From assembly GCA_017436345.1 (NCBI GenBank), contig JAFSDH010000004.1, forward strand, positions 2,661 through 66,660: a DNA stretch of 64,000 nt. Reading direction: 5' to 3'. The notes under the pieces were generated by a model. The model did no database searches. It had not been told where the DNA came from and saw only the letters and a list, made by a program, of their open reading frames with translations. Source of the stretch: Bacilli bacterium (lineage in GTDB: Bacteria; Bacillota_I; Bacilli_A; RF39; UBA660). Made by a program: the position numbers and the translations under genes. Shown here piece after piece: positions 5,119 to 32,983 of this stretch (position 1 is the stretch's first letter; every line of letters begins with the position of its first letter).

Positions 5119-5685
5119 ATGGCAACTAAAAAGAAAGAAAATAATAAAAAAGTTACGAAAAAGCAACCAGTAGTTGCACAAGAAGAAGTACGCATTATTA
5201 AACCAAAGAATTATGTTATATTATCATTAATTTTTATTTTTACATTTGCATTAGTTATCCTATTAAGAAATTGGTATATTTCATATCACAACTATGAATT
5301 ATCAATCTCTGTATTAAAAGATAAACTAAACGAAGTAACAATTGAAGAAATAGATACTTATTTAGCAGAAAACTTAGATGCGATTATATATATCGAAGTA
5401 AGTGAAGATGAAAATTCTCGCGAAGTTGCAGAAGGATTGTTAAATATAGTTAAAGAAAGAAATTTAACAGATCGTGTAGTTTATTTAAATATAAGTTCTG
5501 TTAAAGATAAAGAAAAATTCTTAAATGATTTCAGTCAAAAATATGGAATTGAAGAAAAAATTGAATATTATCCGGCTTTAGTATTATTTTATGAAGGAAA
5601 AATTGAAACATTTGCATCACGAACAGAAAATCAAAGATTAAATATTGGTAATGTTGAGCAATTGTTTGATGAATATGAGTTGTAG
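5119..5685 (+). CDS. membrane-anchored thioredoxin-fold-like protein lacking CxxC (hypothetical)
   Basis: Lys-rich N-terminus and one TM (YVILSLIFIFTFALVILL). The C-terminal domain carries a YPALVLFYEGK beta-strand pattern typical of the thioredoxin fold, but has no cysteine pair. It resembles the product of 38691..39194. Confidence 0.35.
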   Translation: MATKKKENNKKVTKKQPVVAQEEVRIIKPKNYVILSLIFIFTFALVILLRNWYISYHNYELSISVLKDKLNEVTIEEIDTYLAENLDAIIYIEVSEDENSREVAEGLLNIVKERNLTDRVVYLNISSVKDKEKFLNDFSQKYGIEEKIEYYPALVLFYEGKIETFASRTENQRLNIGNVEQLFDEYEL

Positions 5686-10663: not shown

Positions 10664-11374
10664 ATGAAGAAAAAAAGAATATGTCTATTGCTTATAATAT
10701 TATCAATCTTTTTATTTAAGATTGATGTAAATGCAGCAGGAACTTGTACGAAAGATGAAAAACAAAGTTTAGAGAAAATTGCATATGAAATAGATGTAAA
10801 TTATGAGGTCGTTTCAATTGAAAATATACACTCAGATGATTTTAATTATGCATATAATCTTGTTATAAATAATTTTTCAGAAGACTTTTATTTGCTAGTA
10901 GGGAATTATGAAAAAAGGTTAGATTATAATGTTAATGTAAATACATATGAAAATGTATTTATAGGGGGTGGCTATAACGGGAAAATAAAAGTATATAGTA
11001 GCTCGAATACATCTTGTCCAGATACTTTGATACGTTCGTTTGAGATATGGGTTCCCTATTATAATAAATATAGTGAGCGTGCAGAATGTGAAGAATATAA
11101 AGAATATGATATTTGTAAGGTTGCAACTGATACAACCGGTATTAGTGAAGAAGAATTTATAAAAAAAATAGATAAAATTAAAGAGAGTCAAGTAACTGTT
11201 GAGCCAATTGTTGAAGAAGAAAAAAAATGGTATGAAGATATTTATGATTTTTATACTGAGCATAAAGTTTTAATTTTATCTTCAGTAGTAATTATAATCA
11301 TATTAATAGCTACCATAACTATTGTTGTTAAAAAGAAACAAAAAAATAAAATTAAAGTAGATTTAGAGGTGTAA
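10664..11374 (+). CDS. cassette 1, gene A: secreted, C-terminally membrane-anchored 4-Cys protein (unknown family)
   Basis: Signal peptide ...FLFKIDVNA/AG. Ectodomain with SSNTSC and ECEEYKEYDIC patterns, an acidic linker, a C-terminal TM (VLILSSVVIIIILIATITIVV) and a KKKQK tail. Paralog of 15670..16404, which has INTEC and ECKGIEEFSLC. Confidence 0.6.
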   Translation: MKKKRICLLLIILSIFLFKIDVNAAGTCTKDEKQSLEKIAYEIDVNYEVVSIENIHSDDFNYAYNLVINNFSEDFYLLVGNYEKRLDYNVNVNTYENVFIGGGYNGKIKVYSSSNTSCPDTLIRSFEIWVPYYNKYSERAECEEYKEYDICKVATDTTGISEEEFIKKIDKIKESQVTVEPIVEEEKKWYEDIYDFYTEHKVLILSSVVIIIILIATITIVVKKKQKNKIKVDLEV

Positions 11375-11375
11375 T

Positions 11376-14300
11376 ATGAAAAAAAATAAGTTATTAATAT
11401 TAATAATTTGTCTAATAAGTTTTTTACCTTGTTTAACAAATGCTAGTGAGTGTAGTAGCACACCTAGTTATTCTGGGGTAGCAGAATCTGGATATGCAGC
11501 TGCTGGAGGGAAAACTAATTGTAATCCTCCTTGTTATACTAATAGATTCGCAGGATTGAGATTTAGAATTTATTCCTATAAAGATGGAAATTTAAAACCA
11601 CTTGGTAATGGTGTAGATATATGGAGTAAAAAAGCAACTGAAGTTATTACATCATCTGGAAGATATTCATCACCAAATACTGATTTTTTAAACAAAAGAA
11701 TAAATAATAGTTGCACTAATAACGGAAAATTTACAAAATGGAGTACTAGTTTTTCGTTAAACGCTAGTCAATATAAGCAAATGAAAGTATTTTATGATTC
11801 AGAACTAGGATCAGCAAATGCCAAATTAGGACAATACGATTTTGGTGGTTTTATATTAAAATATAATGATAAAGGTGAACCTAATGATGGTTGGTTATAC
11901 GACAATTTATATTCAAAAATAATGAATAGGTCAACCGCTAATGACGAGTTTATCAAAAACTTATGGGGGATAGAAGCGAATTCATTAGTTGCACAAGGTG
12001 AAGATATATATATAGGTGTAGAAATATTACAACGAGTTGATACTAGCTCATATGGTAATTCTAATTATGGAATTAGTACATATAAACTATATTATGGTAG
12101 TCCTTCAGATTTTGCTCCTATTTATGGTACAGCGGAAGCATATGTATCTTTATATAATAGTACAAGTAAAACACCTGTTGGTAAATTAGCAACAACAGGA
12201 AATTTAAAAGGGACATATAAAATTAAAATTAAAAATCCAATGAATACAAACGCTGGATGTTGGGGAAATAGTTGTAGTACATATAATCAATATGCTGGTA
12301 CTGTTTTTGGTTTTTTAGGTGGGAATACAGGATTGTATAATGCTACATACGCTGCAGCTTGTAATAATACTATTGGTATGGCAGTGTTTCATTTTGCTGA
12401 GTGTGAAAAATGTGTTAACAGCTGTGATAATGAATGTGGAAAATATTCAGATGGAACGACTGAGAGAAGAGCTTGTGCTATGAAATATTGTAAAGAGAAC
12501 CCTGTAAAAGGTGAGTCGTATGATTCTTGTATTGCAGCATGTTCTCCAGGTCCATCAAAAGATGAAGGATGTGATCCGAGTGAAAAATGCGATCCAAATA
12601 AATTAGTCACAAATTATAAAGGTGATAAAGTATGTGATGAAAAGGATGATATGAATCAAAAATGTGATGTAGACACAACTATAACAAGTAAAGTTTGTTA
12701 CGATGACAATACTAATATTTCAATACCAGGTGAAGTTATTAGTGATTCAACGGCTAAAGATTTGGAAATTATATATTATAGAATTAATTGTGATGAGAAA
12801 TTGAAGGTGTTTAATGGGTCAAATGGTACTAAGGTATTACAATTTGAAAACAGAGTAGCAGATTTACATATTGGTCTTTCTACAACTTTTGAAAAAAACT
12901 GTACTTTACAATTTAAAGAAAGATACATGGAGTCTGGAACATACAAGTATAAATGGGAAAATGCAAAAGGTAAAGATAAAGACACATCAGCATTAATAAT
13001 GGAAGATATAAAAACTTATGAAGATTATCGTGATAAAACTAAAGATGTAGATTTATACAATGAATATGATAAAATAATAAAAAAATTAAATAATACTTAT
13101 AATAGAGCATATAATCGATTGTCATATGTTACAGAATTAGACACAACAAAAGTAGATGCAACCACAAAAGTGGAAATAGTAAATGAAAGTTTAACTGACT
13201 CTAAAACAATAAACATAAAACTTAAACCAATTTTTTGTGAAATGGGTGATTCAAAAGTTGGATCTGCTTCTATGACTAATTTAAAATGTGTTTTAAAAGA
13301 AGATAAGATTTATTTGCAAGAAGATAACTCTGTTATTTGTGGTAATGACGGTGCCGCAGATATTAAAATAAATAATACCACAGGCGGAACTGGGAATTAT
13401 AAATATACGGTATATTATGGAACTGAATCTACTTGGAATTCTTCATATGGTGATCTTGATGACGTGTATGTAAGTGATGCTACAGAGAGTGGCAGAGAAA
13501 AATGTTTAACAGCAGTGGAAATATTTAATGGATATTGTACTGAGATAGAAGATGTATATAGGTTCAAGCCGTTTACTGCTGGAATTAATACATCAACAAC
13601 TATAACTAAAACAACTGGTAAATATGATATTTACATATCTGGTTATGGTTCTTGTGGACAAATAAAGTTTGGCTGTTGTGCTGACTATAAAATAGAAGAC
13701 GGTAATAAATGTAATAAATGTATGGATTATGATCCAACATCTCAAGAATATTTAGATTGTTATAAAGCATATTGTAGCTGTGATGTTATTTGTGGAGCTA
13801 ATGTTGCATGTCGTGCTAAATATTGTCCTTTAGAATGTGAAGGATGTGAAGTTGGATATACTGATATAACTTCAACTGATGACTCTTGTGACACGTGTGT
13901 TGAAAAATGTAATACTGATTTCTCACCAGCTGGTGGTGGTGGCACTAATAAAAATTTATCAAGTAATATTGTTTGTCGATATGATTGTTGCAATGCATCA
14001 TGTGATATAGGAAATGATACATGTCGTTTTGATTGTTGTATTACAAAGTGTAATAGTTTACAAGAAAAAAATTTACTTGAATATATGGGATATAAAACAA
14101 CAGCTTCTATGACAGCGTTAGAAGCATGTTATCAAGATTGTAGATGTCCTAATGGTAATTGCGGTAATGATTATTACTATAGAACTATAAATCAAGAAAA
14201 ACCATTCCCAGATAGAACTCCAGGAGCTAACTGGTATAATAAAGTAGAACATATTACTGAAAGTGAAAACGTTAATGGGAAATATTATGATCCAACAAAT

Positions 14301-14546
14301 GGGAAAAATTCAGGATATGAATATAAAATTTCTTTAAGCAGTGAAGATATTCAAAAAATTAAAAATGATAAAAAAATAAATACAACGTATACTCAAAAAA
14401 TGAGTTCAGAAGATAAAGCAAATTTGGATGATCGTGGTGTATATTGTAGTTATCTATTACATGATTATTTAAATAATGAATTAAACATTCGAATTGAAGA
14501 AGGTTCGGATGGAAAATATGGAAGTGGGTGTGCTAATATAGGATGA
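11376..14546 (+). CDS. cassette 1, gene B: 1056-aa secreted cysteine-rich protein (unknown family; putative surface/pilus-associated adhesin)
   Basis: Signal peptide MKKNKLLILIICLISFLPCLTNA/SE. About 55-60 Cys by manual count, clustered in CxxC-rich blocks (ECEKCVNSCDNEC...; NKCNKC...CSCDVIC...CEGCE...CRYDCCNASC...CRFDCCITKC). C-terminal motif YYYRTINQEKPFPDR. Starts 1 nt after the upstream stop. Paralog of 16388..19408. Confidence 0.65.
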   Translation: MKKNKLLILIICLISFLPCLTNASECSSTPSYSGVAESGYAAAGGKTNCNPPCYTNRFAGLRFRIYSYKDGNLKPLGNGVDIWSKKATEVITSSGRYSSPNTDFLNKRINNSCTNNGKFTKWSTSFSLNASQYKQMKVFYDSELGSANAKLGQYDFGGFILKYNDKGEPNDGWLYDNLYSKIMNRSTANDEFIKNLWGIEANSLVAQGEDIYIGVEILQRVDTSSYGNSNYGISTYKLYYGSPSDFAPIYGTAEAYVSLYNSTSKTPVGKLATTGNLKGTYKIKIKNPMNTNAGCWGNSCSTYNQYAGTVFGFLGGNTGLYNATYAAACNNTIGMAVFHFAECEKCVNSCDNECGKYSDGTTERRACAMKYCKENPVKGESYDSCIAACSPGPSKDEGCDPSEKCDPNKLVTNYKGDKVCDEKDDMNQKCDVDTTITSKVCYDDNTNISIPGEVISDSTAKDLEIIYYRINCDEKLKVFNGSNGTKVLQFENRVADLHIGLSTTFEKNCTLQFKERYMESGTYKYKWENAKGKDKDTSALIMEDIKTYEDYRDKTKDVDLYNEYDKIIKKLNNTYNRAYNRLSYVTELDTTKVDATTKVEIVNESLTDSKTINIKLKPIFCEMGDSKVGSASMTNLKCVLKEDKIYLQEDNSVICGNDGAADIKINNTTGGTGNYKYTVYYGTESTWNSSYGDLDDVYVSDATESGREKCLTAVEIFNGYCTEIEDVYRFKPFTAGINTSTTITKTTGKYDIYISGYGSCGQIKFGCCADYKIEDGNKCNKCMDYDPTSQEYLDCYKAYCSCDVICGANVACRAKYCPLECEGCEVGYTDITSTDDSCDTCVEKCNTDFSPAGGGGTNKNLSSNIVCRYDCCNASCDIGNDTCRFDCCITKCNSLQEKNLLEYMGYKTTASMTALEACYQDCRCPNGNCGNDYYYRTINQEKPFPDRTPGANWYNKVEHITESENVNGKYYDPTNGKNSGYEYKISLSSEDIQKIKNDKKINTTYTQKMSSEDKANLDDRGVYCSYLLHDYLNNELNIRIEEGSDGKYGSGCANIG

Positions 14547-15085
14547 ATTCGTCAATGTGGGGAGTATTGTTTTTAGCCTTAGGTATAACAGGAATTGTTT
14601 TAATTAATATTTTTGGAGAAATAACAATACAAAATGAACAAAACTATTATTCTTTAAAAGAAGTTACAAAAGCAGCAATGGAAGATGCTGTTGATGAATA
14701 TGCACTAGAAAACGGTATAGGATATGATGGGGTAACTCAAACTGCATACCCTGAATATATGCACTGTGAAGAAGGTGTACCTGGTACTGTAAGAATTATC
14801 AAAGAAAGATTTGTTGAATTATTTATTTTGAAATTTTCTGAAAGTGTAAATATAAATAATGATTATGAAATAGTCTTTAATGATATAGATGAGTGTCCAC
14901 CAAAAGTTACTGTTACGGTAACATCATCTCAAAACTTTAGTATGATACAAAGAGTATTTGGATTAGGTGGCTCAAGAGAAGTTGCTGATGCCGATATTGA
15001 AAATATTATTCATGGTGTTTTAGAAACAGAAAAAACGCAAGATGATGGTATTGCTGAAGATAGAGCAGAACGAGCAGGTGCATAA
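14543..15085 (+). CDS. cassette 1, gene C: small N-terminally anchored TadE/pseudopilin-like protein
   Basis: ATGA start/stop overlap with the upstream gene. Begins MNSSMWG followed by a hydrophobic helix (VLFLALGITGIVLINIFG), and has conserved MHC...IDECPPKVTVT. Roughly half its residues are identical to 19418..19918 by eye. Confidence 0.5.
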   Translation: MNSSMWGVLFLALGITGIVLINIFGEITIQNEQNYYSLKEVTKAAMEDAVDEYALENGIGYDGVTQTAYPEYMHCEEGVPGTVRIIKERFVELFILKFSESVNINNDYEIVFNDIDECPPKVTVTVTSSQNFSMIQRVFGLGGSREVADADIENIIHGVLETEKTQDDGIAEDRAERAGA

Positions 15086-15112
15086 AAAAAGAAGCGATTT
15101 AACGCTTCTTTT
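15086..15112. terminator. bidirectional rho-independent terminator between convergent genes
   Basis: Stem AGAAGCG (15090-15096) pairs with CGCTTCT (15103-15109). It is flanked by an A-run upstream and a T-run downstream, exactly between the stop codons at 15085 (+) and 15113 (-). Confidence 0.75.
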
Positions 15113-15556
15113 TTATTTTTCAATTAATCCATTTGCTTTTAATTTAGAAACTACAGTATCTGCATTTTGATTTCCTACAATTCTTTTTAAAGTACTTGTT
15201 TCGCGTCCATTTTTAAAGAATAAAACAACCGGTGTACCATCAATTCCGTAGTCATCCAAAAACTCACTTCGATCTTTTTCTGTCATATTTGTAATGTTTA
15301 TACTAAATGCTGTTAAATTATATTCGTTTAACACAGATTCAAGTGTAGGAGTAAAATTGCTACAATTTGAGCAACCGGTTTGAACAACTTCAAGAATAAA
15401 ATTATCTTTGTTTGAAAGTTTTTCATTAAAAACTTTATATTCAATTTCAGTTATTGGACTATTTTCGTTTTGATTAGCTTTATTATTTTGGTTACATCCA
15501 ACAATAAAACAAGCAAATATAAGAATTAAAGAAAAAATTTTAATTACTTTTTTCAT
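15113..15556 (-). CDS. thioredoxin-like thiol-disulfide oxidoreductase lipoprotein (CxxC = CSNC)
   Basis: Likely start is MKKVIKIFSLILIFACFIVGC (ATG at 15556-15554, GAGGTGG RBS), with lipobox IVG/C. Active-site-like GCSNCSNF and a cis-Pro strand DGTPVVLFFKNG are typical of the thioredoxin fold. The ORF-track start at 15583 is probably too far upstream. Confidence 0.75.
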   Translation of the reverse strand: MKKVIKIFSLILIFACFIVGCNQNNKANQNENSPITEIEYKVFNEKLSNKDNFILEVVQTGCSNCSNFTPTLESVLNEYNLTAFSINITNMTEKDRSEFLDDYGIDGTPVVLFFKNGRETSTLKRIVGNQNADTVVSKLKANGLIEK

Positions 15557-15669
15557 TATCCACCTCAAAAAATATACTAGCATAAATAAAAAAATAACAC
15601 AATAAAAGATTGTTTTTTACAATAAATTATCGTATACTATAGATAGTATAAAATAGAGGGTGTTGTCGA

Positions 15670-16404
15670 ATGTGTTTTAACAGTAAGAAAAATAAAATTG
15701 CTTTACTTTTAATCATTGTAACATTTTTATTTTTTAATAGAGTTGATGCCGCAAGTTGTACTAACACAATAAAGAGGGAACTTGTAAAAGAAGCGGAAAA
15801 AGTAGAGATTGTTCCTTATTTAAATGAGGAATATAATCCGATGCATGTATATAAATATAATGTTTATATAACAAATTTATCAGAAAATATATTTATTATA
15901 GACTCTATAGGAAATAGATACGAATATGATGAATTCCAAGATGAGAATTCAGTTTTTGGCATGTATGCACCAGGAAGTAAAATAACTTTTACGATTTATG
16001 CCTCTATAAATACTGAGTGTAATAATGCTAAATTAACTAGTTTAACTATAAATTTTGATTATTATAATGATTATTCAACACGTGAAGAATGTAAAGGAAT
16101 TGAAGAGTTTTCTTTGTGTAAAAGAAATTATAATGGAAAAATAGAATCTGATGAATGGTTTAAACAAAAGGTTGAAGAATATAAAAATGGAAATCATGAT
16201 GTTGAAATAGAAGAAGAATCAGAAGAAGAAACTAATAAAATAAAAGATATTATTTTTCATCCTATTACAATAACTATTTTTTCTCTTTTACTTATAGGAA
16301 TAATTGTATTAATTATATATAAATTAAGAAAGAATAAAGGAAAAGTTAAAATAAAATACAAAGATATAAAAGAACGAGGTGAAGAATATGAAGAAAATAA
16401 ATAA
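15670..16404 (+). CDS. cassette 2, gene A: secreted, C-terminally membrane-anchored 4-Cys protein (paralog of 10664..11374)
   Basis: Signal peptide ...FFNRVDA/AS. It has the same Cys spacing pattern as its paralog, an acidic EIEEESEEE linker, a C-terminal TM (ITITIFSLLLIGIIVLIIY) and a basic tail. Confidence 0.6.
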   Translation: MCFNSKKNKIALLLIIVTFLFFNRVDAASCTNTIKRELVKEAEKVEIVPYLNEEYNPMHVYKYNVYITNLSENIFIIDSIGNRYEYDEFQDENSVFGMYAPGSKITFTIYASINTECNNAKLTSLTINFDYYNDYSTREECKGIEEFSLCKRNYNGKIESDEWFKQKVEEYKNGNHDVEIEEESEEETNKIKDIIFHPITITIFSLLLIGIIVLIIYKLRKNKGKVKIKYKDIKERGEEYEENK

Positions 16405-19400
16405 AATATTTTTTGCCATAGCAATAGCTTTATTATCGAACCTAGCTCTAACGGTAGATGCGAAAGTTAACGTTACACCAGGTGGAGGAGGAACTCCACC
16501 AGCTAGTGGTTGTAGTGAATGTGCATGGGTATACTCAAGTGATGGACTAGGAGTAAGATTAAGCTTATATAAGTATGATGAAAAAAATCTAGTATTTAAA
16601 ACTTCAATAGATTTAGTAAATCAACCTTCTAATTATCCAGCAAAGGCAAATACTACAAAGGATAAATTTGGAAGATATAGTTATACTAAACTTAATAAGA
16701 CAATAGATTTTGCCTATTATACAGTTGGAGCGAAAGATATAAATAACTATGGATTTTCAACTATAAATGAAGATAGTGATTCTTGGTCAACAAAATTTGC
16801 TAAAGAAGTTCAAAACTATTTTGGAGAAACAGAAAGCGAAACGATTTCTGGTATTAAAAAAATGTTTGGAGTTACAGTTCCTGTTAATGAACTATCACAA
16901 TATTATATTGTTGCCGAACCAACAGCTTTCTTCTATAGCCGTGTAGGACAATTTTATACTTATGCAACTGGTTATGAATATATGGTTGTTTTAAATGATA
17001 TTGATAAATATACTGGAAATTACTCTTGGAATTTATGGGAATCTCAAGGAAGACATACATTCCTTGGATATATGTTTAATGGTATGTATAACAAAACTGA
17101 TTCAAGTATAGAAACAGAAATAAAAAAAGAATGGGGATTTACAGATGGAAGATATGATTTCTATAACTTCTTATCTCGTAGTAATAATAAATCATTAGTT
17201 AAAACTACATCTAGCTTAATAAGTGAAAAGTCTAAGATTAGAGATAACAATGCATATGCTAAGTCAAACTATCCTTATGGTGTTATGGTATTCTGGATTG
17301 GAAAAAATAGTACTGTAATTGGTGGATGTGAAAATGTATGTACTGACAAAAATGGAAATAAGTTAACAGGTGATGCATTACTTAAATGCGCTGAAAACTA
17401 TTGTTCAAGTTTAGATAATGTAAAAAATAAAGAAGATAAGGCTGATTGTATCACAAATAGTTGTAAATATACTTTTACAAGATTAACTTGTGATAATACA
17501 ACAAGTAAAAATGGTAATGATACAGTATGTACAGCAAGTACAAATTCCAATAAAAAAACTTGTGAAATTAAAAATACACAAAATTATTCATATAAAGTAG
17601 AATGTCAAAATTTTTCAACAGTTGAGTTCCCTGAAACTTTACCAAGTACTTTTGTTGCTGGTCAAGGTTTTGAGTATCGTGTAAGACTATATGGAAACAA
17701 AACATGTACTGTTAAATTGGATGAAGCTTTATGGAAATATAATTATGCATCAAGTTATACAGATACTGAAAGACAAACCTATATTAATGCGTTAAATAGT
17801 TATAATAGCTTAAACTTTTCAGATTATTATTTTGATTCATCAACTGCTAATATAAATGTTAATATTGATAAGAGTAAAGATGGAAAAAAATCAACTGATA
17901 AAGTTCAGTTAAAAGCAGAAGAAAGATATGAACATGGTGATAAAAAAGTAACAACGACATATACAAATCAAAACATTGTTAGTTATCATAAAAATAGCAA
18001 TGTTACAAAATCAGTAAAATTATATACAACCGAGTCAAGTAATGGTACTTACTATGAACTTCCAGGTGTTTGTATATCTGAAAAAGATAATGAAACCCCT
18101 AAAGAAGGATCTGTATGTGAAAAAGGTTTAGGTCCATATAATAAATATTACACTAATATCTATGCAGACGAAGGTAATAACAATATTGAAACGACAGTTA
18201 CATATAATCCAGCGGGACTAGATAATGTTGTAAATAAGTGTGATTATACAATAACTGATGAACCTTTAAGTTGTTATATTGATGTTCAAACAGCATCTAA
18301 TCAAAAAGGTGAAACATTAAAAAATAACGAAGATATTAATTTTATATTAACTGTTATAACTCAAGACAGAACTAGATCAATAAGAAAGAATATTGGTACA
18401 ACACCATTAACAATGGATGATCAATTTAATAATAAAAATGTTTATACTATTTTGAAAAACACAATAACAACAAATAAAGATATAACAGTATATGGAACTG
18501 TTACAGATGGTGAACATATAGCCATTTGTGAAAAAAGAGTCAATATAAATCCACAACAATGCGAATGGACAGTGACTGAAAATAATAATGAAGTAACAGT
18601 TTCATTAAAGCAAATAAAAAATACAAATGCTAAATATTATATTAGAACATCTACAAGTAATACTTGGATGGAAACAAGAACAAGAACTTTCAATAAAACT
18701 AATAAATTAGAAATTGAAGGAAAAATAGTTTCAGGAAGCGATACATATACATGTTATTATTCCGCTAATTTATCTGGTCAAACATGTACAGAATTATATG
18801 AACCAGCACAGTACGATAAAATAAAAAATTATTGTGATACATCATGGCAAAATGATACAGCAAATTATAGTAGTGCAAATGATTGTTTTACTGGATGTAC
18901 TGGAACAAATAAATGTAAAATTCTACATGCATGTACAGAAGTAGAAAAAATAAGAAATTATTGTAAAACTAATTTTGCGGATGATGGATATGAAAATGTT
19001 GGAAGTTGTATAAATGATTGTTCATGTGGTGGGGGACTAGACTATTACTATAGAACAATATCAGTTGATGATCCATTCCCAAAACGTGATGCTCATTACA
19101 ATTGGTTAGGATATGAAGAATATATAACTAATGATAAAGATGATTTAACATCATCGTATACTGATAGTCCTGAATATGAAATAGTTCTTGATAAAAATCG
19201 TATTGATGCTATCAAATCAGATACAAAAAGATATAATTCCAAAACTGGTAATGATGCTTATGGTGATTATATTAGATATGACAAAGAAGATGAAGAAACA
19301 AGCGATTTTAATGAACCATATAAAAGTAAATTTATTCATTTCGATGATACTGAAAATGGTGGATTTAAATCATATTTCACTTATATCGAAGGTGTAAAAA

Positions 19401-19408
19401 CAAGTTAG
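16388..19408 (+). CDS. cassette 2, gene B: ~1006-aa secreted cysteine-rich protein (paralog of 11376..14546)
   Basis: ATG at 16388 follows a GAGGTGA RBS; the ORF track uses the GTG at 16379. Signal peptide MKKINKIFFAIAIALLSNLALTVDA/K and about 30 Cys. Blocks shared with the paralog: GVRLSLYKY vs GLRFRIYSY; GGCENVC...LKCAENYC vs ECEKC...ACAMKYC; YYYRTISVDDPFPKR vs YYYRTINQEKPFPDR. Confidence 0.65.
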   Translation: MKKINKIFFAIAIALLSNLALTVDAKVNVTPGGGGTPPASGCSECAWVYSSDGLGVRLSLYKYDEKNLVFKTSIDLVNQPSNYPAKANTTKDKFGRYSYTKLNKTIDFAYYTVGAKDINNYGFSTINEDSDSWSTKFAKEVQNYFGETESETISGIKKMFGVTVPVNELSQYYIVAEPTAFFYSRVGQFYTYATGYEYMVVLNDIDKYTGNYSWNLWESQGRHTFLGYMFNGMYNKTDSSIETEIKKEWGFTDGRYDFYNFLSRSNNKSLVKTTSSLISEKSKIRDNNAYAKSNYPYGVMVFWIGKNSTVIGGCENVCTDKNGNKLTGDALLKCAENYCSSLDNVKNKEDKADCITNSCKYTFTRLTCDNTTSKNGNDTVCTASTNSNKKTCEIKNTQNYSYKVECQNFSTVEFPETLPSTFVAGQGFEYRVRLYGNKTCTVKLDEALWKYNYASSYTDTERQTYINALNSYNSLNFSDYYFDSSTANINVNIDKSKDGKKSTDKVQLKAEERYEHGDKKVTTTYTNQNIVSYHKNSNVTKSVKLYTTESSNGTYYELPGVCISEKDNETPKEGSVCEKGLGPYNKYYTNIYADEGNNNIETTVTYNPAGLDNVVNKCDYTITDEPLSCYIDVQTASNQKGETLKNNEDINFILTVITQDRTRSIRKNIGTTPLTMDDQFNNKNVYTILKNTITTNKDITVYGTVTDGEHIAICEKRVNINPQQCEWTVTENNNEVTVSLKQIKNTNAKYYIRTSTSNTWMETRTRTFNKTNKLEIEGKIVSGSDTYTCYYSANLSGQTCTELYEPAQYDKIKNYCDTSWQNDTANYSSANDCFTGCTGTNKCKILHACTEVEKIRNYCKTNFADDGYENVGSCINDCSCGGGLDYYYRTISVDDPFPKRDAHYNWLGYEEYITNDKDDLTSSYTDSPEYEIVLDKNRIDAIKSDTKRYNSKTGNDAYGDYIRYDKEDEETSDFNEPYKSKFIHFDDTENGGFKSYFTYIEGVKTS

Positions 19409-19417
19409 GAGGTAAAA

Positions 19418-19918
19418 ATGAATTCATCAACATGGGGATATTTATTCCTAGTATTAGGTTTATTAGGTATTTTACTAATTAATTTGTTTGGTAATATAAC
19501 TATAAATAATGAACAAGATTATTATTTATTAAAAGAAGTAACAAAATCAGCTATGCTTGATTCTGTTGATATAATGGCATTTCGTGAAGGGATTGGTTAT
19601 GATGGAATAACTTCAACATCTGATCCTGAATCAATGCATTGTATTACTGGTAAAACAGGAGAAATTCGAATTGTCAAAGAAAGATTTGTAGAAAGTTTTA
19701 TTAGACATTTCGCTGAAAATGTTGATCGAAACAAAAAGTATACAATAAGTTTCAAAGATATTGATGAATGTCCTCCTAAAGTAACAGTTACAATTAAAAC
19801 AGAAGAATCATTAAGTTGGTTTGCAAAGTTACTTGGTAAAACAGATAAAATGGATTATGAAACAGATACAGCCGATGTAGTGAATATCTTAAATGCCATA
19901 TTAGAAAGTGAAGTTTAG
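19418..19918 (+). CDS. cassette 2, gene C: small N-terminally anchored TadE/pseudopilin-like protein (paralog of 14543..15085)
   Basis: Begins MNSSTWG followed by a hydrophobic helix. Shares NEQ.YY.LKEVTK.AM, GIGYDG, MHC, IRI.KERFVE and IDECPPKVTVT with its paralog. Confidence 0.5.
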   Translation: MNSSTWGYLFLVLGLLGILLINLFGNITINNEQDYYLLKEVTKSAMLDSVDIMAFREGIGYDGITSTSDPESMHCITGKTGEIRIVKERFVESFIRHFAENVDRNKKYTISFKDIDECPPKVTVTIKTEESLSWFAKLLGKTDKMDYETDTADVVNILNAILESEV

Positions 19919-19933: not shown

Positions 19934-20809
19934 ATGAATAGTACTTCAATAAAAATTAAAAAGTTTTTAAGTAACAGAAATACAGTTACAATTATTTGTG
20001 CATTTATAGGTATAGTGGTTTTATATGTTGGATATACAATGAAAGTTCAATCTGCAATTGAACCAATCGAAGTACCACATGCTAAAGTTACAATTCAACC
20101 ACGTACCAAAATAAAAGATGATATGATTGGATATATCGAAGTAGCAAGTGCAGCTGTTGAGGAAATGGGAGATAATATTATTATTTGTAATAAAGAAACA
20201 TGTCCTAAAAAATTAGTAGGAAGATATACAGCTGTAAATACATTAATTCCTCAAGGAAGCTTATTCTATGAATCTGCAGTAGTAGATAAGGATGAATTAC
20301 CTGATGCTGCTGTATACGAAGTAAAAGATGGGGAAACATTATATAACTTAAGTGTTAATATGAGTACAACATATGTAAATTCAATTATTCCTGGTGGATA
20401 TATTGATATTTATATAAGAACAATTGATGAGCAAGGTATGGTTAGAGTAGGTAAATTTATTGAAAATATAAAGATTTTAGCTGTAAAAACATCAAGTGGT
20501 TTAAATGTATTTGAAAATAGTGAAGAACAAAGAGTACCTGCATATGTATTATTTGCCTTACCAAATGAGCAATATTTATATCTATCAATGGCAGCCAAAT
20601 TAGGTCTTGAAATTATTCCAGTACCTATCAATGTAGATTTGGATAATAGTCCAGAAACATCTGAAATGACAAGTAAACAATTATATGAATATATTCAAGG
20701 TTTAGCTGATGAATTTGCTCAAGGAGGATTTACTCTTGAAGAAGAAGATCCAACTAATCCATTACCACCAACTGATCCAACAGTAAATAATGGAACAAAA
20801 GGTGAATAA
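19934..20809 (+). CDS. CpaB/RcpC-like pilus assembly protein (tentative)
   Basis: N-terminal TM (VTIICAFIGIVVLYVG). This is followed by a SAF-like segment (VPHAKVTIQPRTKIKDDMIGYIEV) and a Pro-rich C-terminal tail. It sits immediately upstream of the Tad ATPase. Confidence 0.4.
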   Translation: MNSTSIKIKKFLSNRNTVTIICAFIGIVVLYVGYTMKVQSAIEPIEVPHAKVTIQPRTKIKDDMIGYIEVASAAVEEMGDNIIICNKETCPKKLVGRYTAVNTLIPQGSLFYESAVVDKDELPDAAVYEVKDGETLYNLSVNMSTTYVNSIIPGGYIDIYIRTIDEQGMVRVGKFIENIKILAVKTSSGLNVFENSEEQRVPAYVLFALPNEQYLYLSMAAKLGLEIIPVPINVDLDNSPETSEMTSKQLYEYIQGLADEFAQGGFTLEEEDPTNPLPPTDPTVNNGTKGE

Positions 20810-20810
20810 T

Positions 20811-22796
20811 ATGGATGAAACAATGAATTTAAATGGGATGGGAATAGGTGTAACAGAAACTAAAGTAACTGAAGTTCCTGTTGCTGCACCTGTTGAAGCA
20901 TCAAATGAAAATCAGGATGTCACAACAAACATTCCTGATAATTCATCTGCTTCTCCTGTTCAAGTAGAAAGTAATGAAACAAACATTGAAACAAATGAAA
21001 ATAAGTCACTAGAAGCCAACAATGAAGTTGACTTCGGTGATTTAGATATGATTAAAGAACTACGCGCTGAAGAAGCAGAAAGTAGAAAAAAAGAGAGTAT
21101 TTTCTCTAATATGGACTTTGGTTCTTTAAAAAAATATTTAGATGATGATGATGTAACTGATATATCATATAGTAATGGTGGACAACTTTGGCTAAAAACT
21201 TTAAGTAAAGGTGTTTACCGTGTGCAACAAGATGATATAAATGATGCCTTAATTGAAAAAATAGCTTTCCAATGTTCTAACGTTATGGGAAAAACATTCA
21301 ATATGGCTCATCCATTTTTGGACTCTGAATCAGCTGAACTTCGTATGAATTTCATCCATGATTCAATTGCTAGAAATGGTATTGCTGTTGTATTTCGTAA
21401 AACACCAGCAAAAATTCGTCTTGAAAAAGAAAAATTAATGAAAGAAAACTATGTATCATTAAGTATCCATGATTTTCTAATAAAAGCTGTTCAAGGGCAC
21501 TGTAATATAATCATGTGTGGGGAAACTGGTTCAGGTAAAACAGAATTCTTAAAATATTTAGCTAGTCACACATTTGAAAATGAAAAAATCGTTACAGTTG
21601 AAGATACCTTAGAACTTCACTTGGATAGAATTTATCCACATCGTGATATAGTTGCGATGAAAACTAATAATGTTGCGTCTTATTCAGATGTATTAGTTAC
21701 ATGTATGAGACAAAACCCAATTTGGATATTGTTATCAGAAGTTCGTAGTGCAGAAGCAGTTACTGCTGTTCGTAACTCAATATCTTCTGGGCACTTTATC
21801 CTTTCAACAATCCATGCTGATAAAGCAGCTAATATTCCTTATCGTTTATATAGTTTGCTTGAGTCAAATATTGATGTTGAACAATTCTTAAATACAATTT
21901 ATCGTTATATCCAATTAGGTGTATACTTAAGAGGTAGATTTGATGCTAAACAAGGTAGATTTGTTCGTGAAATAGGAGAAGTAACAGAGTTTTATGTTAA
22001 TGATAATAATGAATGTATTTCTAATACTATTTATCAAAAAACAATTAAAGGTGATGTTAAATATAAACCTATAAGTAATCATTTACTTGAATATCTAGAA
22101 GGGCAAGGAATTGATATGTCATCAATTCGTGATGCTAATGGGGACTTAGAAAAAGCTCAATCATATAGTGATGAAGAAACAAAAAATGAATCTGTAGCAG
22201 AAGAAAAAAAAGAAGAAACTTCTATAGAAATTAAACCTATTACTGAAGAAGTAAAGGTAGATCAATCAATAAACAATGTTACAGAAGAAAAAGATATAAA
22301 ACCTATTGCACCAGCAGTAGAAGAAAAGGTTGCTCCAATAACAGTAGAACAACCAGTAAATAGTGTTACAGCGGAAGTAAAACCAATTACTCCAGTAACC
22401 GAAGAAAAAGTTGTACCATTAACGAATGTACAACCTATAAATAACTTGGAAAATGTAGAAGTAAAACCTATTGCACCAGCAGTAGAAGAAAAGGTTGTTC
22501 CAATAACAACAGAACAACCAGTAAATAGTGTTATGGCGGAAGTAAAACCAATTACTCCAGTAACCGAAGAAAAAGTTATTCCAACAACAATAGAACAACC
22601 AACCCCATTGACTAATATTACACCTGTTGTTGATCCAACTCAAAAAGTAGAAACACCTACTAGTCCAAGTCAAGAAGCAAGTGGAAATGCTGTTAATGAA
22701 GTAAAAACAATTACTCCTATTACTCCAAATAGTGATAGTGATGGAACTTCACAACCAGTAAATTTCACACCAATTAATGTTACAAATATTCAATAA
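20811..22796 (+). CDS. CpaF/TadA-type (VirB11 superfamily, T2SSE) secretion ATPase with acidic N-terminal and repeat-rich C-terminal extensions
   Basis: Walker A GETGSGKT, VTVEDTLEL, Walker B-like IWILLSEVRSAEA and His-box LSTIHA. The ATG at 20811 has an AAAGGTGA RBS and avoids overlapping the upstream gene; the ORF track starts at 20790. TadB/TadC-like genes lie directly downstream. Confidence 0.85.
   Translation: MDETMNLNGMGIGVTETKVTEVPVAAPVEASNENQDVTTNIPDNSSASPVQVESNETNIETNENKSLEANNEVDFGDLDMIKELRAEEAESRKKESIFSNMDFGSLKKYLDDDDVTDISYSNGGQLWLKTLSKGVYRVQQDDINDALIEKIAFQCSNVMGKTFNMAHPFLDSESAELRMNFIHDSIARNGIAVVFRKTPAKIRLEKEKLMKENYVSLSIHDFLIKAVQGHCNIIMCGETGSGKTEFLKYLASHTFENEKIVTVEDTLELHLDRIYPHRDIVAMKTNNVASYSDVLVTCMRQNPIWILLSEVRSAEAVTAVRNSISSGHFILSTIHADKAANIPYRLYSLLESNIDVEQFLNTIYRYIQLGVYLRGRFDAKQGRFVREIGEVTEFYVNDNNECISNTIYQKTIKGDVKYKPISNHLLEYLEGQGIDMSSIRDANGDLEKAQSYSDEETKNESVAEEKKEETSIEIKPITEEVKVDQSINNVTEEKDIKPIAPAVEEKVAPITVEQPVNSVTAEVKPITPVTEEKVVPLTNVQPINNLENVEVKPIAPAVEEKVVPITTEQPVNSVMAEVKPITPVTEEKVIPTTIEQPTPLTNITPVVDPTQKVETPTSPSQEASGNAVNEVKTITPITPNSDSDGTSQPVNFTPINVTNIQ
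22293..22628 (+). repeat. in-frame tandem repeat inside the ATPase gene (about four copies of a 27-28-aa Pro/Glu/Val module)
   Basis: The repeated module is (D/E)(I/V)KPI(A/T)P(A/V)(V/T)EEKV(A/V/I)P(I/L/T)T..EQP.N. At the DNA level, 22299-22411 and 22464-22576 are near-identical (165-nt period). Confidence 0.85.
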
Positions 22797-22816
22797 AAAG
22801 GAAAGTTGGTGAGTTT

Positions 22817-23710
22817 ATGGAATTAGTAATTTTGCTATTCTTATTTGTATTTGCAACTCTATATTATTTAAAGAAAGGTGACTCTTTATATAAATTTATT
22901 ATTGATGGAGCCAATGTTGTATATGATAAATATGCACCTTTCTCATATAAAACAATAAGAGAAAAAGTAAAAGATTTAGGCCAAAACTATACAGTTAAAG
23001 ATTATACTATTCAATTATGTTTATTTGGTGGAGGAGCTTTCATCGTTTCATATTTGTATTTTTATAGCATAATAGTATCTTTAGTTTACGTAGTAGCCGC
23101 GATATCTTTGATTCCATATCTACAATACTTAAGATGTAAACGTATATATAGTGAATTTATTTTTGAACAAGTTCAAGTATATACAACAAATACAATCATG
23201 GAATTCCAAACAACTCAATCTTTTGTAAAAGCTTTAGAAGGTGTATATGGATCTGGTGTATTACAAGATCCAGTCCTAGCTGATGTAAAAATTATGATTG
23301 ATATGGCTTATCAAAATGGGGTAATTGATGAATCAATTGAATATATGAATGAAAGATATGATTTCTATATGACAAGAAACATGCATCAATTATTCTTACA
23401 AATTACTAAAGAAGGTTCAAGGGATTCAAATGATGTACTTGAAAATATGTTACAAGATATCGATACTCTTGTAGAAGGAGTATACCGCGATAGAATGGAC
23501 CGTGCTAACTTCCATAGACAATTCTTAACATATGGTTTTATGTTATATCTATTGATTATGTTAGTACAGTATTTATTACAAGTAGAAACATATCGAGAGT
23601 TACTTAAAGATAATTTAGTAGTAGTTATATTACATATCATAGTTATATCAAATAGTTATTTTCTTGTATCAGGAGAAAAATATTATAACGAGAATGTAGG
23701 TGCTGAATAA
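22817..23710 (+). CDS. TadB-like inner-membrane platform protein (T2SSF-domain-like)
   Basis: 297 aa with N-terminal, central and C-terminal TM segments. The cytoplasmic helical domain (...SFVKALEGVYGSGVLQDPVLADVKIMIDMAYQNGVIDESIEYM...) is in the style of T2SSF/TadB. Position next to the ATPase supports the call. Confidence 0.55.
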   Translation: MELVILLFLFVFATLYYLKKGDSLYKFIIDGANVVYDKYAPFSYKTIREKVKDLGQNYTVKDYTIQLCLFGGGAFIVSYLYFYSIIVSLVYVVAAISLIPYLQYLRCKRIYSEFIFEQVQVYTTNTIMEFQTTQSFVKALEGVYGSGVLQDPVLADVKIMIDMAYQNGVIDESIEYMNERYDFYMTRNMHQLFLQITKEGSRDSNDVLENMLQDIDTLVEGVYRDRMDRANFHRQFLTYGFMLYLLIMLVQYLLQVETYRELLKDNLVVVILHIIVISNSYFLVSGEKYYNENVGAE

Positions 23711-24489
23711 TGGTTATATTAATAATTGCAGGTTTAGTAGTATTTGTACTTGTTTATACAAAAACAGTTGATGGAAATCAATTCTTACAAGAAAATGATA
23801 TGTATGTTCAAATGCTTAAAGAAAAAGATTGGGATTTCTATGTATCAGCAAAATATGGAGATCGAGTAAATGCTGATGAACTATTTAATAAAAGAATAAG
23901 AGATACATTTTGGATATCAGCTATTATCATATTAATAATGATGACTAATTTTTCATTCATAAATCTAGTATTTATGATGGTTATGATTTTTGTGATATTT
24001 AAAATGCCTTATCAAAATTTAAGATCATATTATAAAAGATATATGTCTAAAATTGACCAAATGCTACCATACTATTTAAAAGGATTAGAAATCCTATGCC
24101 AAAACTATACAGTGCCGGTAGCACTTGCAAGATCAATTGAAGATGCACCTGAAATATTTAAACCAGGTTTACGTCAAATGGTTGAAAAAATTAATAATGG
24201 TGATTCATCAATTCAACCATATATGGATTTTGCAAATCAATATCCTGTTAGAGATTCAATGCGTATGATGCGTTTATTATATCGTCTTGGATTAGGAGCT
24301 CAAGAAAATAAATATCAACAATTAATTATGTTCTCTAAATCAGTTTCATCATTACAAAATAAAGCTCGTGAAGATAAATATAAAAAGAGATTACAAGTAA
24401 TGGAACAAAAAACAATGATCATGTTGGTTGTAACTGGTGGCGGAACAATGGTTGTATTATTATTTGCAATGATGTTCTTAATGGGATAA
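23710..24489 (+). CDS. TadC-like inner-membrane platform protein (T2SSF-domain-like)
   Basis: TAATG stop/start overlap with the upstream gene. The central domain LPYYLKGLEILCQNYTVPVALARSIEDAPEIFKPGLRQMVEKINNGDSSIQPYMDFANQY matches the T2SSF pattern. A C-terminal TM pair is present. Confidence 0.6.
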   Translation: MVILIIAGLVVFVLVYTKTVDGNQFLQENDMYVQMLKEKDWDFYVSAKYGDRVNADELFNKRIRDTFWISAIIILIMMTNFSFINLVFMMVMIFVIFKMPYQNLRSYYKRYMSKIDQMLPYYLKGLEILCQNYTVPVALARSIEDAPEIFKPGLRQMVEKINNGDSSIQPYMDFANQYPVRDSMRMMRLLYRLGLGAQENKYQQLIMFSKSVSSLQNKAREDKYKKRLQVMEQKTMIMLVVTGGGTMVVLLFAMMFLMG

Positions 24490-24495
24490 AAAATA

Positions 24496-24524
24496 TTGAA
24501 AAAAAAAGTTTATATTGCTATAAT
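24496..24524 (+). promoter_or_regulatory. near-consensus sigma-A promoter directly upstream of the small pilin-like gene
   Basis: TTGAAA (24496-24501), exactly 17 nt of spacer, then TATAAT (24519-24524). It is followed by a strong RBS (GAGAGGAGGA) and the ATG at 24556. Confidence 0.65.
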
Positions 24525-24555
24525 TAATTTATGATAGAGAGAGGAGGAATAATAA

Positions 24556-24747
24556 ATGAAAGAGGCAAGTGGAGAATTAAATATGACAATTGTAACAGTA
24601 GTTGCAATCGCTTTAATCTTAGCATTCGCTACAATGTTCGTACCAGATATTCTTGAAGGAATCCAAGAAAAATGGAACATTGCAGAACAAGATGCACAAG
24701 AAGGTTTAGATAATAAAGACAATACTTACCAAGACCAACATGGTTAG
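24556..24747 (+). CDS. small Flp/pilin-like protein (putative major pilin)
   Basis: 63 aa: MKEASG / ELNMTIVTVVAIALILAFATMFV, then a short polar tail. The size, the single N-terminal hydrophobic helix after a Gly, the dedicated promoter and the position inside the Tad-like operon support the call. It lacks the canonical Flp G/xxxxEY motif. Confidence 0.45.
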   Translation: MKEASGELNMTIVTVVAIALILAFATMFVPDILEGIQEKWNIAEQDAQEGLDNKDNTYQDQHG

Positions 24748-24776
24748 GATAAAGAAGAATAAGAGGTGTTTAAATT

Positions 24777-25214
24777 ATGCGTGAGTCAATAGGTGGAACT
24801 TTATTAATGTATTTAGTTATAATATTCTTGTTCATATATATTGTATTTATGGCAGTTGTTATTAACTATGGTCGCGTATTTAGAGCAAAGAATAGCTTAA
24901 TTTCATATATTGAAGCAGAAGAAGGATTTAAAGGTGCTGATTCTGTAAATGATTTTATTACTAAAGCTAATAGTTTAAATTATAGAGGACCATTATACCT
25001 ATGTTATACTCAAGGTAATGGCGACACAAAATATTTTTCAATTAGATTAGCTATACAATTCGATATACCATTAACAAATGGATCTGCTAATGTATGGATC
25101 ACAGGAGAAACAAGTGGTATTAGAAATGTTACAAACAATACTGGAAATAATAGTATTGAAGAATGTAATGCAACAGGTAATAAATTTACAAATGCTTCAA
25201 AAATAAGAGGGTAA
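24777..25214 (+). CDS. TadE-like pseudopilin/membrane protein
   Basis: MRESIGG followed by a hydrophobic helix, then YGRVFRAKNSLISYIE. This matches the TadE N-terminal pattern of a TM followed by a conserved helix. Confidence 0.45.
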   Translation: MRESIGGTLLMYLVIIFLFIYIVFMAVVINYGRVFRAKNSLISYIEAEEGFKGADSVNDFITKANSLNYRGPLYLCYTQGNGDTKYFSIRLAIQFDIPLTNGSANVWITGETSGIRNVTNNTGNNSIEECNATGNKFTNASKIRG

Positions 25215-25226
25215 AGGAGGTTCTAT

Positions 25227-26282
25227 ATGAACGTATTAATTACAAATCAACAAGAGACTTTACTTTCTGGCTTAACTGTAGAAATTATTAAAACGTTGCG
25301 TGGTGAATATGAAGCTGAAGAGATAATTGGAACTTTTTCCAATTTCTTTTTTGGAAGAATGATTTTAGATTTAACTGCAATTAAGGATTATCAAAATTTA
25401 ACAAATATTCAAAAGTTATCTATTGGTTTACCAGTAGAGAAGATAATCCTTTTATTGCCAGCCAACGGAAACTATTCAACTAATGCATATTTATCAAAAT
25501 TAATATCAATGGGATTTTATAACTTTACAACTAATTTAGAAGGAGTAGAGTATTTAATTAATAATCCTAATACTTATAAAGATGTTGCGCATCTTCATCA
25601 AATTGAACCAGTTATGCCAGTTGCACCAATGCCTATTCCAGGAGTTGTTACAACGGCTTCTAATAGTCAACCAGTTCAAGAAGAAATGCAACAGGCAGTA
25701 ATACCAGAAACTCCTCAAATTAGGACAATTGGTATAAAAAATGCAACAGACAGTGCTGGTGCAACAACTCTTGTTGTTACTATGAAAAAAGAATTAGAAA
25801 AATTTCATGGTTTAAGTGTAAAAGCAATTGAAGTTGGTAAAAGAGATTTTGTTTATTTTAATGATAAATCCCTTGTTTCAATTGGTAAACCTGAATTTTT
25901 ATCTGAAATTTCAAAATCTGCTAATTATGATTTAGTATTAGTAGATATGAATGATATGGATGATAATGCTGTAAGTGAAGTTTATTATTTAATAGAGCCA
26001 TCTATTATTAAAATAAATAAAATTGTTAAAAGAGATAAAAATATATTTCAAAAATTAAAAGATGAAAAAATTATAATAAATAAAAGTATGATATCAAACG
26101 ACGAAATATCTGAATTTGCTGCTGAATCAGGATTAAAGATATTTACTGCATTAAGACCATTTAATGATCGTAGTAGAAGTCAAGTTTTAACTAGTTTGTT
26201 AAATAGAATGGGAATAATTCAAACTGATACTTCTGATAATGGTGGTAGAAGTAGTGGATTTGGTGGTATTTTTAGACACTAG
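25227..26282 (+). CDS. TadZ/CpaE-like protein: receiver-like N-domain plus ParA/MinD-fold domain with degenerate Walker A
   Basis: N-terminal ~115-aa beta-alpha domain, then a Pro-rich linker. The following segment, RTIGIKNATDSAGATTLVVTM, sits where MinD/ParA proteins have KGGxGKTT. YDLVLVDMND corresponds to the Walker B region. Confidence 0.5.
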   Translation: MNVLITNQQETLLSGLTVEIIKTLRGEYEAEEIIGTFSNFFFGRMILDLTAIKDYQNLTNIQKLSIGLPVEKIILLLPANGNYSTNAYLSKLISMGFYNFTTNLEGVEYLINNPNTYKDVAHLHQIEPVMPVAPMPIPGVVTTASNSQPVQEEMQQAVIPETPQIRTIGIKNATDSAGATTLVVTMKKELEKFHGLSVKAIEVGKRDFVYFNDKSLVSIGKPEFLSEISKSANYDLVLVDMNDMDDNAVSEVYYLIEPSIIKINKIVKRDKNIFQKLKDEKIIINKSMISNDEISEFAAESGLKIFTALRPFNDRSRSQVLTSLLNRMGIIQTDTSDNGGRSSGFGGIFRH

Positions 26283-27963: not shown

Positions 27964-28004
27964 GATATAATTAGTATGATATATTGGTCTTCATGGAGGA
28001 AAAT

Positions 28005-30206: not shown

Positions 30207-30225
30207 AAAGGAATAAGGTGATATA

Positions 30226-32883: not shown

Positions 32884-32908
32884 TTTATAGTCATACAAAA
32901 ACTTATAT

Positions 32909-32943: not shown

Positions 32944-32983
32944 AATGGTATAATTTAAGTATATGTAGTAAAGAGGTGATAGA

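Follow-up and report, generated by a model that had tools for sequence, protein, structure and literature searches.

Bacillota generally use little cysteine in the proteins that they export, and the thiol-disulfide oxidoreductases described outside the bacterial cell come in several kinds. In Bacillus subtilis, BdbD and BdbC are needed for the disulfide of the competence pseudopilin ComGC, and in Streptococcus gordonii (also one of the Bacillota) the oxidoreductase SdbA works without a classical quinone-linked re-oxidant. In some clostridial genomes that encode DsbA homologues neither DsbB nor VKOR was found, and these enzymes are proposed to be regenerated by an oxidant of low molecular weight or by an enzyme partner yet to be identified (PMC12453122). 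TrbB of F, a CxxC isomerase encoded by a type IV secretion system (T4SS), is thought to serve the Cys-rich proteins TraH, TraN and TraU, and TraF is its paralogue without Cys (PMC7555446); pediocin has a putative thiol-disulfide oxidoreductase of its own, PedC (PMC4919988); and Tra09 of Lactococcus lactis pNP40, a thioredoxin-like protein from a Gram-positive conjugation/T4SS cluster, is non-essential for transfer (PMC8194271). Here, we set beside these systems a single gene for a thioredoxin-fold lipoprotein, found in a 64,000-nucleotide stretch of the genome of an uncultured Bacilli bacterium (GenBank assembly GCA_017436345.1, contig JAFSDH010000004.1, positions 2,661 to 66,660), a stretch that we call the window.

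We argue, with moderate confidence, that the product of this gene is a lipid-anchored, outward-facing thiol-disulfide oxidoreductase and a facultative accessory of a chromosomal Tad-plus-T4SS-like surface machine in an order of uncultured gut Bacilli; it probably helps form disulfides in the exported, cysteine-bearing proteins of that cluster. To our knowledge, reliance on oxidative folding is not thought to occur in anaerobic gut Bacilli. What kind of thioredoxin is it, how closely does it belong to the machine, and what might it do there?

Fold, family and membrane anchor

The start codon is the ATG at 15556 (MKKVIK...), with GAGGTGG just upstream. Because M1-K2-K3 is invariant in an alignment of 22 homologues and GAGGTGG precedes this ATG, the longer open reading frame (ORF) that runs up to 15583 is not the gene. 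The 23 homologues found by a word-indexed search are all metagenome proteins, and those relatives that bear a name are metagenome-assembled genomes labelled uncultured Bacilli, Erysipelotrichaceae or Bacillota, rabbit ('Lapin') and 'RUG' genomes among them. The N-terminus is basic, then hydrophobic, and then runs into an I-V-G-C21 lipobox that fits [LVI][ASTVI][GAS]C and whose G20 and C21 are invariant in the 22 homologues; profile searches of the source genome returned Lgt at 245 bits and LspA at 110 bits. By these predicted criteria the protein is a bacterial lipoprotein, with acylation itself a prediction, and many of its orthologues are anchored by a membrane helix instead of a lipid. CSNC (62-65) and G107-T108-P109 are invariant in the same alignment, and, when aligned with protein disulfide isomerase (PDI) and thioredoxin, they fall on the CGHC site and the G-x-P cis-Pro loop. 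The three motifs that an earlier note had picked out by eye on this DNA (lipobox, CSNC and a GTP cis-Pro) are thus all present.

The Pfam Thioredoxin family (PF00085) matches the protein at 41.8 bits, against a cut-off of 23.5. A model made with AlphaFold2 (AF2) from the 22-sequence alignment has a predicted local distance difference test score (pLDDT) above 89 over residues 31-147, with a disordered linker at 19-30, and it has the canonical beta-alpha-beta-alpha-beta-alpha-beta-beta-alpha order of the thioredoxin fold, as Foldseek also found. The top 50 Foldseek matches are thioredoxins at probability 1.00 and include DsbD-gamma and the bacteriocin transport accessory protein of Streptococcus pneumoniae, 1zma, which is among the best structural matches (template-modelling score 0.72, root-mean-square deviation 2.4 Å); the PDB sequences that the family profile matches best are catalytic a-domains of PDIs. 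None of DsbA, TlpA and ResA appears in that top 50, the DSBA and Thioredoxin_4 profiles (PF01323, PF13462) do not match the protein, and the helical insertion of DsbA/BdbD is absent from the model. Neither the Redoxin nor the AhpC-TSA profile of Pfam matches, and no NCBIfam model reaches its cut-off: TIGR01295, for the PedC/BrcD bacteriocin maturation disulfide isomerase, scores 21.3 bits (cut-off 120), and TIGR02738, for F-type TrbB, 18.9 bits (cut-off 132). PF20207.4 (DUF6568) does not match the protein, and precomputed matches to PF20207.5 ('PedC-like') exist for all homologues.

Because the profile, model, Foldseek and PDB results agree, we conclude that the protein is a minimal, plain thioredoxin/PDI-a/PedC-Bta-like domain on a lipid tether, not a DsbA, TlpA or ResA. 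Pfam, motifs, lipobox, model and structure search speak together for the extracytoplasmic, membrane-tethered CxxC thioredoxin fold that the earlier note had recognised; of the relatives it named, BdbD, TlpA and ResA turn out to be loose comparisons, and the Bta-like type was its best suggestion.

Linkage to a Tad-plus-T4SS-like machine

Our survey covered 401 genomes (145 genera, ~0.6-1.9 Mb) from the order to which the source genome belongs; the thioredoxin-family profile matches 266 of them and DUF5411, a family encoded beside the gene in the window, 328. Gene neighbourhoods were compared at 86 orthologous loci from 45 genera, which are the best-scoring matches together with chosen counter-examples and not a random sample; ORFs in them were called simply and labelled by BLAST against the window proteins. 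The automatic sort misfiles a few loci (L031 is counted with the giants owing to a Cys-rich TrbL-like protein), and L042 and L092 show one system gene only before the contig ends.

At 63 of the 86 loci, the thioredoxin gene has a gene of the Tad/T4SS-like system no more than three genes away. The same count for two comparison neighbours is 20 for DUF6568 and 10 for diacylglycerol kinase (DAGK). By this linkage the protein is a T4SS/pilus-associated thioredoxin-like accessory, which is a functional class and not a sequence family. The gene most often faces a divergent operon with a Cys-rich giant, DUF5411 and Tad genes (44 loci); elsewhere it faces CpaB/Tad genes directly (5), VirB2-like or other T4SS-system genes, mostly without a cassette (14), or an unrelated divergent neighbour (12), and at the remaining loci it has no divergent neighbour and is co-directional (9) or lies at a contig end (2). 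The far-side neighbours vary and the cassettes number from 0 to 3, yet the gene remains at the head of the system. In some relatives the first gene that it faces is a homologue of the 389-aa pilin-headed protein of the window, and in two it faces an operon with a 639-aa protein that begins in a type IV prepilin-like motif.

Could the protein instead be a housekeeping extracytoplasmic oxidoreductase of the SdbA/BdbD kind, and its position a matter of inherited chromosomal order? The neighbourhood is indeed inherited vertically. The VirB4-like ATPase was found in 45 of 46 tested genomes (66-95% identity, at least 33 genera), and because of this and of the spread of DUF5411 we regard the Tad/T4SS-like machine as a core, vertically inherited chromosomal feature, not a mobile element. 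The same explanation gains from the 23 unlinked orthologues, some of which stand in a conserved housekeeping string (LysM - Trx - x - DUF6568 - w5692), and from the Cys-rich exported proteins encoded elsewhere in the genome, such as type IV pilin-headed giants with 22-24 Cys. But across rearrangements the gene stays with the system far more often than DUF6568 or DAGK stays with the gene; it holds the same divergent, head-of-operon position whichever module leads; and at least three other exported thioredoxin-like proteins of the genome could cover the general work. We consider a housekeeping enzyme unlikely.

The pilin-headed giants just mentioned, C19:5436-8678 and C23:2337-5771 of the source genome, are 1080-1144 aa long, start as type IV prepilins (GFTMIELLAV... 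and GYTIIEILAV...) and hold 24 and 22 Cys. In the region of C2:130395 (L005, 491-1863), two paralogues stand in tandem, each with a zinc ribbon at the N-terminus, a single membrane helix and a PedC-like thioredoxin domain that faces outward; their motifs are CSYC and CSHC, and they score 36 and 21 bits against PedC_BrcD.

The earlier note had proposed a catalyst dedicated to the giant proteins of the two flanking cassettes and to a Cys-rich M23 hydrolase. Such an enzyme would have been recruited for them and would be useless without them. The position of the gene, between the two most Cys-rich exported proteins of its genome, is what one would then expect, as is the giant in the divergent operon at the 44 loci of the commonest kind. 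Against this stand the mostly cassette-free loci at which the gene faces VirB2-like/T4SS genes or Tad genes directly. In at least 12 relatives it stands at the head of the locus, facing genes of these kinds, without an adjacent Cys-rich cassette; 16 of 20 listed DUF5411-negative genomes have it; 18 of 20 listed genomes without it have DUF5411; and 11 loci carry giants of 20-45 Cys and Tad genes with no thioredoxin gene, in genomes where the profile has no match or weak matches only. The earlier note had itself named retention of the gene at this position in cassette-free relatives as evidence against its proposal, and this is what the comparison shows. Gene and cassettes, in other words, occur without each other, and we find a dedicated catalyst distinctly improbable, less likely still than a housekeeping enzyme. 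Since cassette-free loci keep the gene and cassette-bearing loci occur without it, we read it as a facultative accessory of the whole locus.

Table 1. Features of the window in order of position, with the parts of the lipoprotein given by residue.
Feature	Position	Strand	Composition or basis
Cys-less membrane-anchored DUF6568 ('PedC-like') protein	5119..5685	+	PF20207.4, 90 bits
Cassette 1	10664..15085	+	three genes, listed separately
Cassette 1 anchored protein	10664-11374	+	236 aa, 5 Cys
Cassette 1 giant secreted protein	11376-14546	+	1056 aa, 59 Cys
Cassette 1 DUF5411 protein	14543-15085	+	
Bidirectional intrinsic terminator	15085..15114		common to the thioredoxin gene and the convergent DUF5411 gene of cassette 1
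Thioredoxin-fold lipoprotein gene	15113..15556	-	147 aa; ORF, Pfam, 22-homologue alignment, AF2 model, Foldseek
Parts of the lipoprotein	residues 1-147		signal peptide 1-20; lipobox IVG/C21 (cut before C21); flexible linker 22-33; thioredoxin domain 34-147
Active-site parts of the thioredoxin domain	residues 62-65, 108-109		C62-S-N-C65; T108-cisP109
Divergent intergenic region, thioredoxin gene/cassette 2	15557..15669		113 bp
Cassette 2	15670..19918	+	heads the Tad-like operon
Cassette 2 anchored protein	15670-16404	+	244 aa, 5 Cys
Cassette 2 giant secreted protein	16379-19408	+	1009 aa, 30 Cys
Cassette 2 DUF5411 protein	19418-19918	+	
Tad-like module	19934..26282	+	RcpC/CpaB-like, T2SSE ATPase (668 aa), two membrane proteins, 145-aa pilin-like, 351-aa protein
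VirB2-like two-helix protein, copy 1	26357..26662	+	101 aa; Cys8 and Cys100 invariant, in the tails
Pilin-headed protein	26744..27913	+	389 aa, 6 Cys
VirB2-like protein, copy 2	27984..28406	+	signal peptide; same invariant Cys pair
T4SS-like core	28425..38616	+	TrbL/VirB6-like, TcpE/VirB3-like, 187-aa protein, VirB4-like ATPase, M23 peptidase, two small anchored proteins, VirD4-type coupling protein
VirB4-like ATPase, within the T4SS-like core	31087-32883	+	

In the window (Table 1), the gene runs towards 14543-15085 and away from 15670-16404, and it is the only plausible minus-strand gene from ~5.1 to 44 kb. The terminator between it and cassette 1 has a 12-pair stem set between an A-run and a T-run (1 site found, 0.2 expected). 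The earlier note's description of this arrangement (lone minus-strand gene, shared terminator, divergence from cassette 2) is sound in each respect; that the gene is wedged between two cassettes is true of the source genome and a few close relatives and is not a conserved arrangement. Both promoters presumably sit in the divergent spacer, where only weak consensus matches were found, no more than in shuffled sequence. The 30-kb block that holds the gene is bounded by the DAGK gene and a class II aminoacyl-tRNA synthetase gene. Within it, the order of the Tad-like module is kept in relatives; its two membrane proteins are TadB/C-like by position only and have no Pfam match. Copy 2 of the VirB2-like protein scores 21.4 bits against Pfam T4SS_pilin, below its cut-off, and the M23 peptidase of the T4SS-like core has 749 aa and 20 Cys. 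The ORFs of the window that were scanned yielded no recognisable relaxase family.

Several further observations concern the neighbours. A 541-aa protein without a family match, encoded at 42459-44084 after a LysM gene, lies outside the block in the window; its homologues are the first gene facing the thioredoxin gene in many relatives, where the order is 541-aa homologue, ~610-aa or pilin-headed protein, ~260-aa protein, giant, DUF5411, CpaB, and it probably belongs to the Tad/T4SS-like system. Seven loci (L058, L062, L068, L073, L076, L078, L079) have helix-anchored orthologues followed by two co-directional genes for ~240 and ~290 aa; at four others (L103, L105, L109, L111), for which the profile gives no match or only weak ones, a gene pair of like size occupies the same divergent position without the thioredoxin gene. 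The two genes behind the helix-anchored orthologues were considered as partners and rejected, for they have no conserved Cys (0-5 Cys). One locus (L057, on contig C14 of genome G394) has, three genes away from the thioredoxin gene, an ORF of 2264 aa that contains 179 cysteines.

Clients, redox direction and remaining alternatives

How might such an enzyme work? After Sec export and acylation at Cys21, it would be held on the outer face of the membrane by a linker of ~12 residues, where C62-S-N-C65 would hand its disulfide to cysteines of newly exported locus proteins or shuffle mispaired ones. Its clients would be both giants (59 and 30 Cys), the two small anchored proteins, the VirB2-like pilins, the 389-aa pilin-headed protein and, perhaps, the M23 hydrolase. 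Re-oxidation would then come from small-molecule disulfides or by another route, without DsbB, VKOR or CcdA/DsbD. We infer three elements of this scheme (the clients, the direction of catalysis and the recycling), and they deserve to be taken in turn.

No other predicted exported protein of the genome is as rich in Cys as the two flanking giants, which have 56 and 30 Cys after residue 35, and the genetic link to exported Cys-rich proteins drawn by the earlier note is thus supported. The VirB2-like proteins offer a different sort of client. Their family (26-27 sequences, 29% mean column identity) has only seven invariant columns. Two of these are Cys and lie in the tails, the first ahead of helix 1 and the second behind helix 2; in the model the helices form a hairpin whose tails are both at one end. 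Because each tail has its invariant Cys and the tails lie together, a tail-to-tail disulfide is plausible, and the VirB2-like protein is, on this model, a plausible candidate client that would explain the cassette-free loci. Foldseek returned nothing significant for the model, since helical hairpins are unspecific. VirB2/TrbC pilins of Gram-negative P-type systems undergo head-to-tail peptide cyclisation. It is possible, if unlikely, that the VirB2-like pilin is the main conserved client, its N-tail and C-tail Cys joined by the enzyme into a ring-like subunit, with the giants as secondary, lineage-specific clients; such a ring, if real, would be the monoderm disulfide counterpart of that cyclisation. 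Some VirB2-like copies (L012-L088) have an extra Cys pair in the C-tail (CWxCAT...C).

For the direction of catalysis, we took a census of active-site motifs in the 134 relatives of up to 200 aa within the top 150 of a representative search: C-S-H-C occurs in 51, C-S-A-C in 22, CPHC in 7, and CGHC and CSNC in 4 each. The family motif is mostly C-x-H-C, the dipeptide type known from DsbA and PDI, and this suggests an oxidase or isomerase. No quinone-linked partner is in sight. The earlier note saw no DsbB, BdbC or VKOR in the window, and this extends to the whole genome, which is 96% complete (PF02600 has no match, PF07884 only one of 11.7 bits). The genome also has no CcdA/DsbD carrier (PF02683 has no match; PF13386 has one of 18 bits at an unrelated place). 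Read from motifs and profile searches, this suggests an oxidase/isomerase recycled by small-molecule oxidants. A role in cytochrome maturation was considered and rejected, as there is no CcdA and no match to a Redoxin-type profile.

One protein of the genome deserves mention as a possible carrier. The operon C22:40708-42178 (L003, 1507-2974) encodes a NifS-like aminotransferase, a small cytoplasmic thioredoxin (86 aa, WCGAC) and a protein of 400 aa. Besides a signal peptide, this last protein has a thioredoxin-like domain with CPHC and a multi-pass membrane domain that includes the motifs NPC and LACSAGFP. No Pfam or NCBIfam family matches it, and it may be a DsbD/CcdA-like carrier that has escaped recognition. 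We found full-length homologues in 12 of the 26 genomes that have the thioredoxin gene and in 11 of the 20 that do not, and for want of co-occurrence we rejected it as a specific partner.

The enzyme could also run the other way, as a reductant that keeps exported Cys reduced or feeds repair or maturation of the ResA/TlpA/CcmG or Etrx type. DsbD-gamma and cytoplasmic thioredoxins are among its structural neighbours, the habitat is anoxic, and F TrbB is active when reduced and needs DsbD (PMC7555446). Against a reductant are the missing membrane electron carrier, the failure of the sole possible carrier (the 400-aa CPHC fusion) to co-occur with the gene, and the same profile and motif results that point to an oxidase or isomerase; we think it very unlikely. 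Further along the window, after a C39-ABC exporter, GG-leader peptides at 47669-47812 and 47815-47982 each have a single Cys near the C-terminus (...LGCRE and ...GNVC), and so one intermolecular disulfide is possible in a two-peptide bacteriocin. That the lipoprotein is a PedC/Bta-type accessory for this bacteriocin is scarcely credible: the possible pairing of the peptides, the weak PedC/BrcD match and the structural match to 1zma are in its favour, but the exporter (45168-47252) lies 30 kb from the thioredoxin gene, no exporter was recognised beside the gene at the 86 loci (in a comparison set that does not hold the window's exporter), and the PedC_BrcD score of ~21 bits is far below the cut-off of 120.

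What, then, weighs against an oxidative accessory of the machine? About a quarter of the orthologues (23 of the 86) are not adjacent to the system, in a set of loci that was chosen and not drawn at random, and about a third of the genomes (135 of 401) have no thioredoxin gene. All 20 tested genomes that lack the gene have the VirB4-like ATPase (66-95% identity), and those inspected keep their Cys-rich cassettes, which means that the enzyme is dispensable or replaceable. Because the region is vertically inherited, conservation of gene order could be partly a matter of descent, and it is weaker support than recurrence in independent contexts. On the chemical side, the source clade carries CSNC and not C-x-H-C, predicted exported proteins show no excess of even Cys numbers (76 even, 90 odd, by a crude signal-peptide predictor), and disulfides outside the cell of an anaerobic gut organism are a premise of the whole argument.

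Comparison with known systems and meaning

An order with reduced genomes of 0.6-1.9 Mb keeps a Tad-plus-T4SS-like machine, and most of its genomes encode a tethered thioredoxin-fold enzyme at the head of that machine. Should pilins and giants indeed be joined by disulfides, this would be a way of stabilising surface filaments without DsbB or VKOR, and the enzyme would be a simple handle for finding which proteins of the machine are exposed outside the cell. The Patescibacteria T4SS paper makes no mention of thioredoxin or disulfides, and for DUF5411 we found one incidental mention in the literature.

Among enzymes that act on pilin-type subunits, BdbD resembles the proposed role, as a Gram-positive extracytoplasmic oxidoreductase; it is, however, DsbA-like, with a helical insertion and the quinone-linked BdbC, whereas the lipoprotein has a plain fold and no DsbB-like partner. 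SdbA and the clostridial DsbA homologues are general enzymes with no tie to one gene cluster, unlike the lipoprotein. PedC, BrcD and Bta (1zma) share with it a membrane-tethered minimal thioredoxin fold, a home in Bacillota and specific exported Cys-containing products, but it stays below the TIGR01295 cut-off, and the clients proposed here are large surface proteins and pilins, not peptides. The non-essentiality of Tra09 fits the facultative distribution of the lipoprotein, a likeness of role; Tra09 is plasmid-borne and listed without a membrane segment.

Closest as a functional analogue, we suggest, is TrbB of F, by likeness in role and fold, with no family cut-off reached. Both are small exported CxxC thioredoxin folds encoded with T4SS/pilus genes and Cys-rich exported parts, and both are accessory, not core. 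Even TraF has a counterpart, the Cys-less, thioredoxin-like DUF6568 protein of the window. (That protein is a distant paralogue of the lipoprotein, at 26% identity and E = 1e-4, and the two together recall the TraF/TrbB pair.) Unlike TrbB, which is periplasmic, the lipoprotein falls below the TIGR02738 cut-off and is, by prediction, lipid-anchored in a monoderm; unlike that of F, its locus is chromosomal and vertically inherited, and there is no DsbD to keep the enzyme reduced. Among the thioredoxin-like accessories associated with secretion systems and pili, what is new here is one that is lipid-anchored, chromosomal and at home in a monoderm without the classical partners. The thioredoxin gene alone is a familiar type of accessory in a new setting; the machine that surrounds it is the more remarkable.

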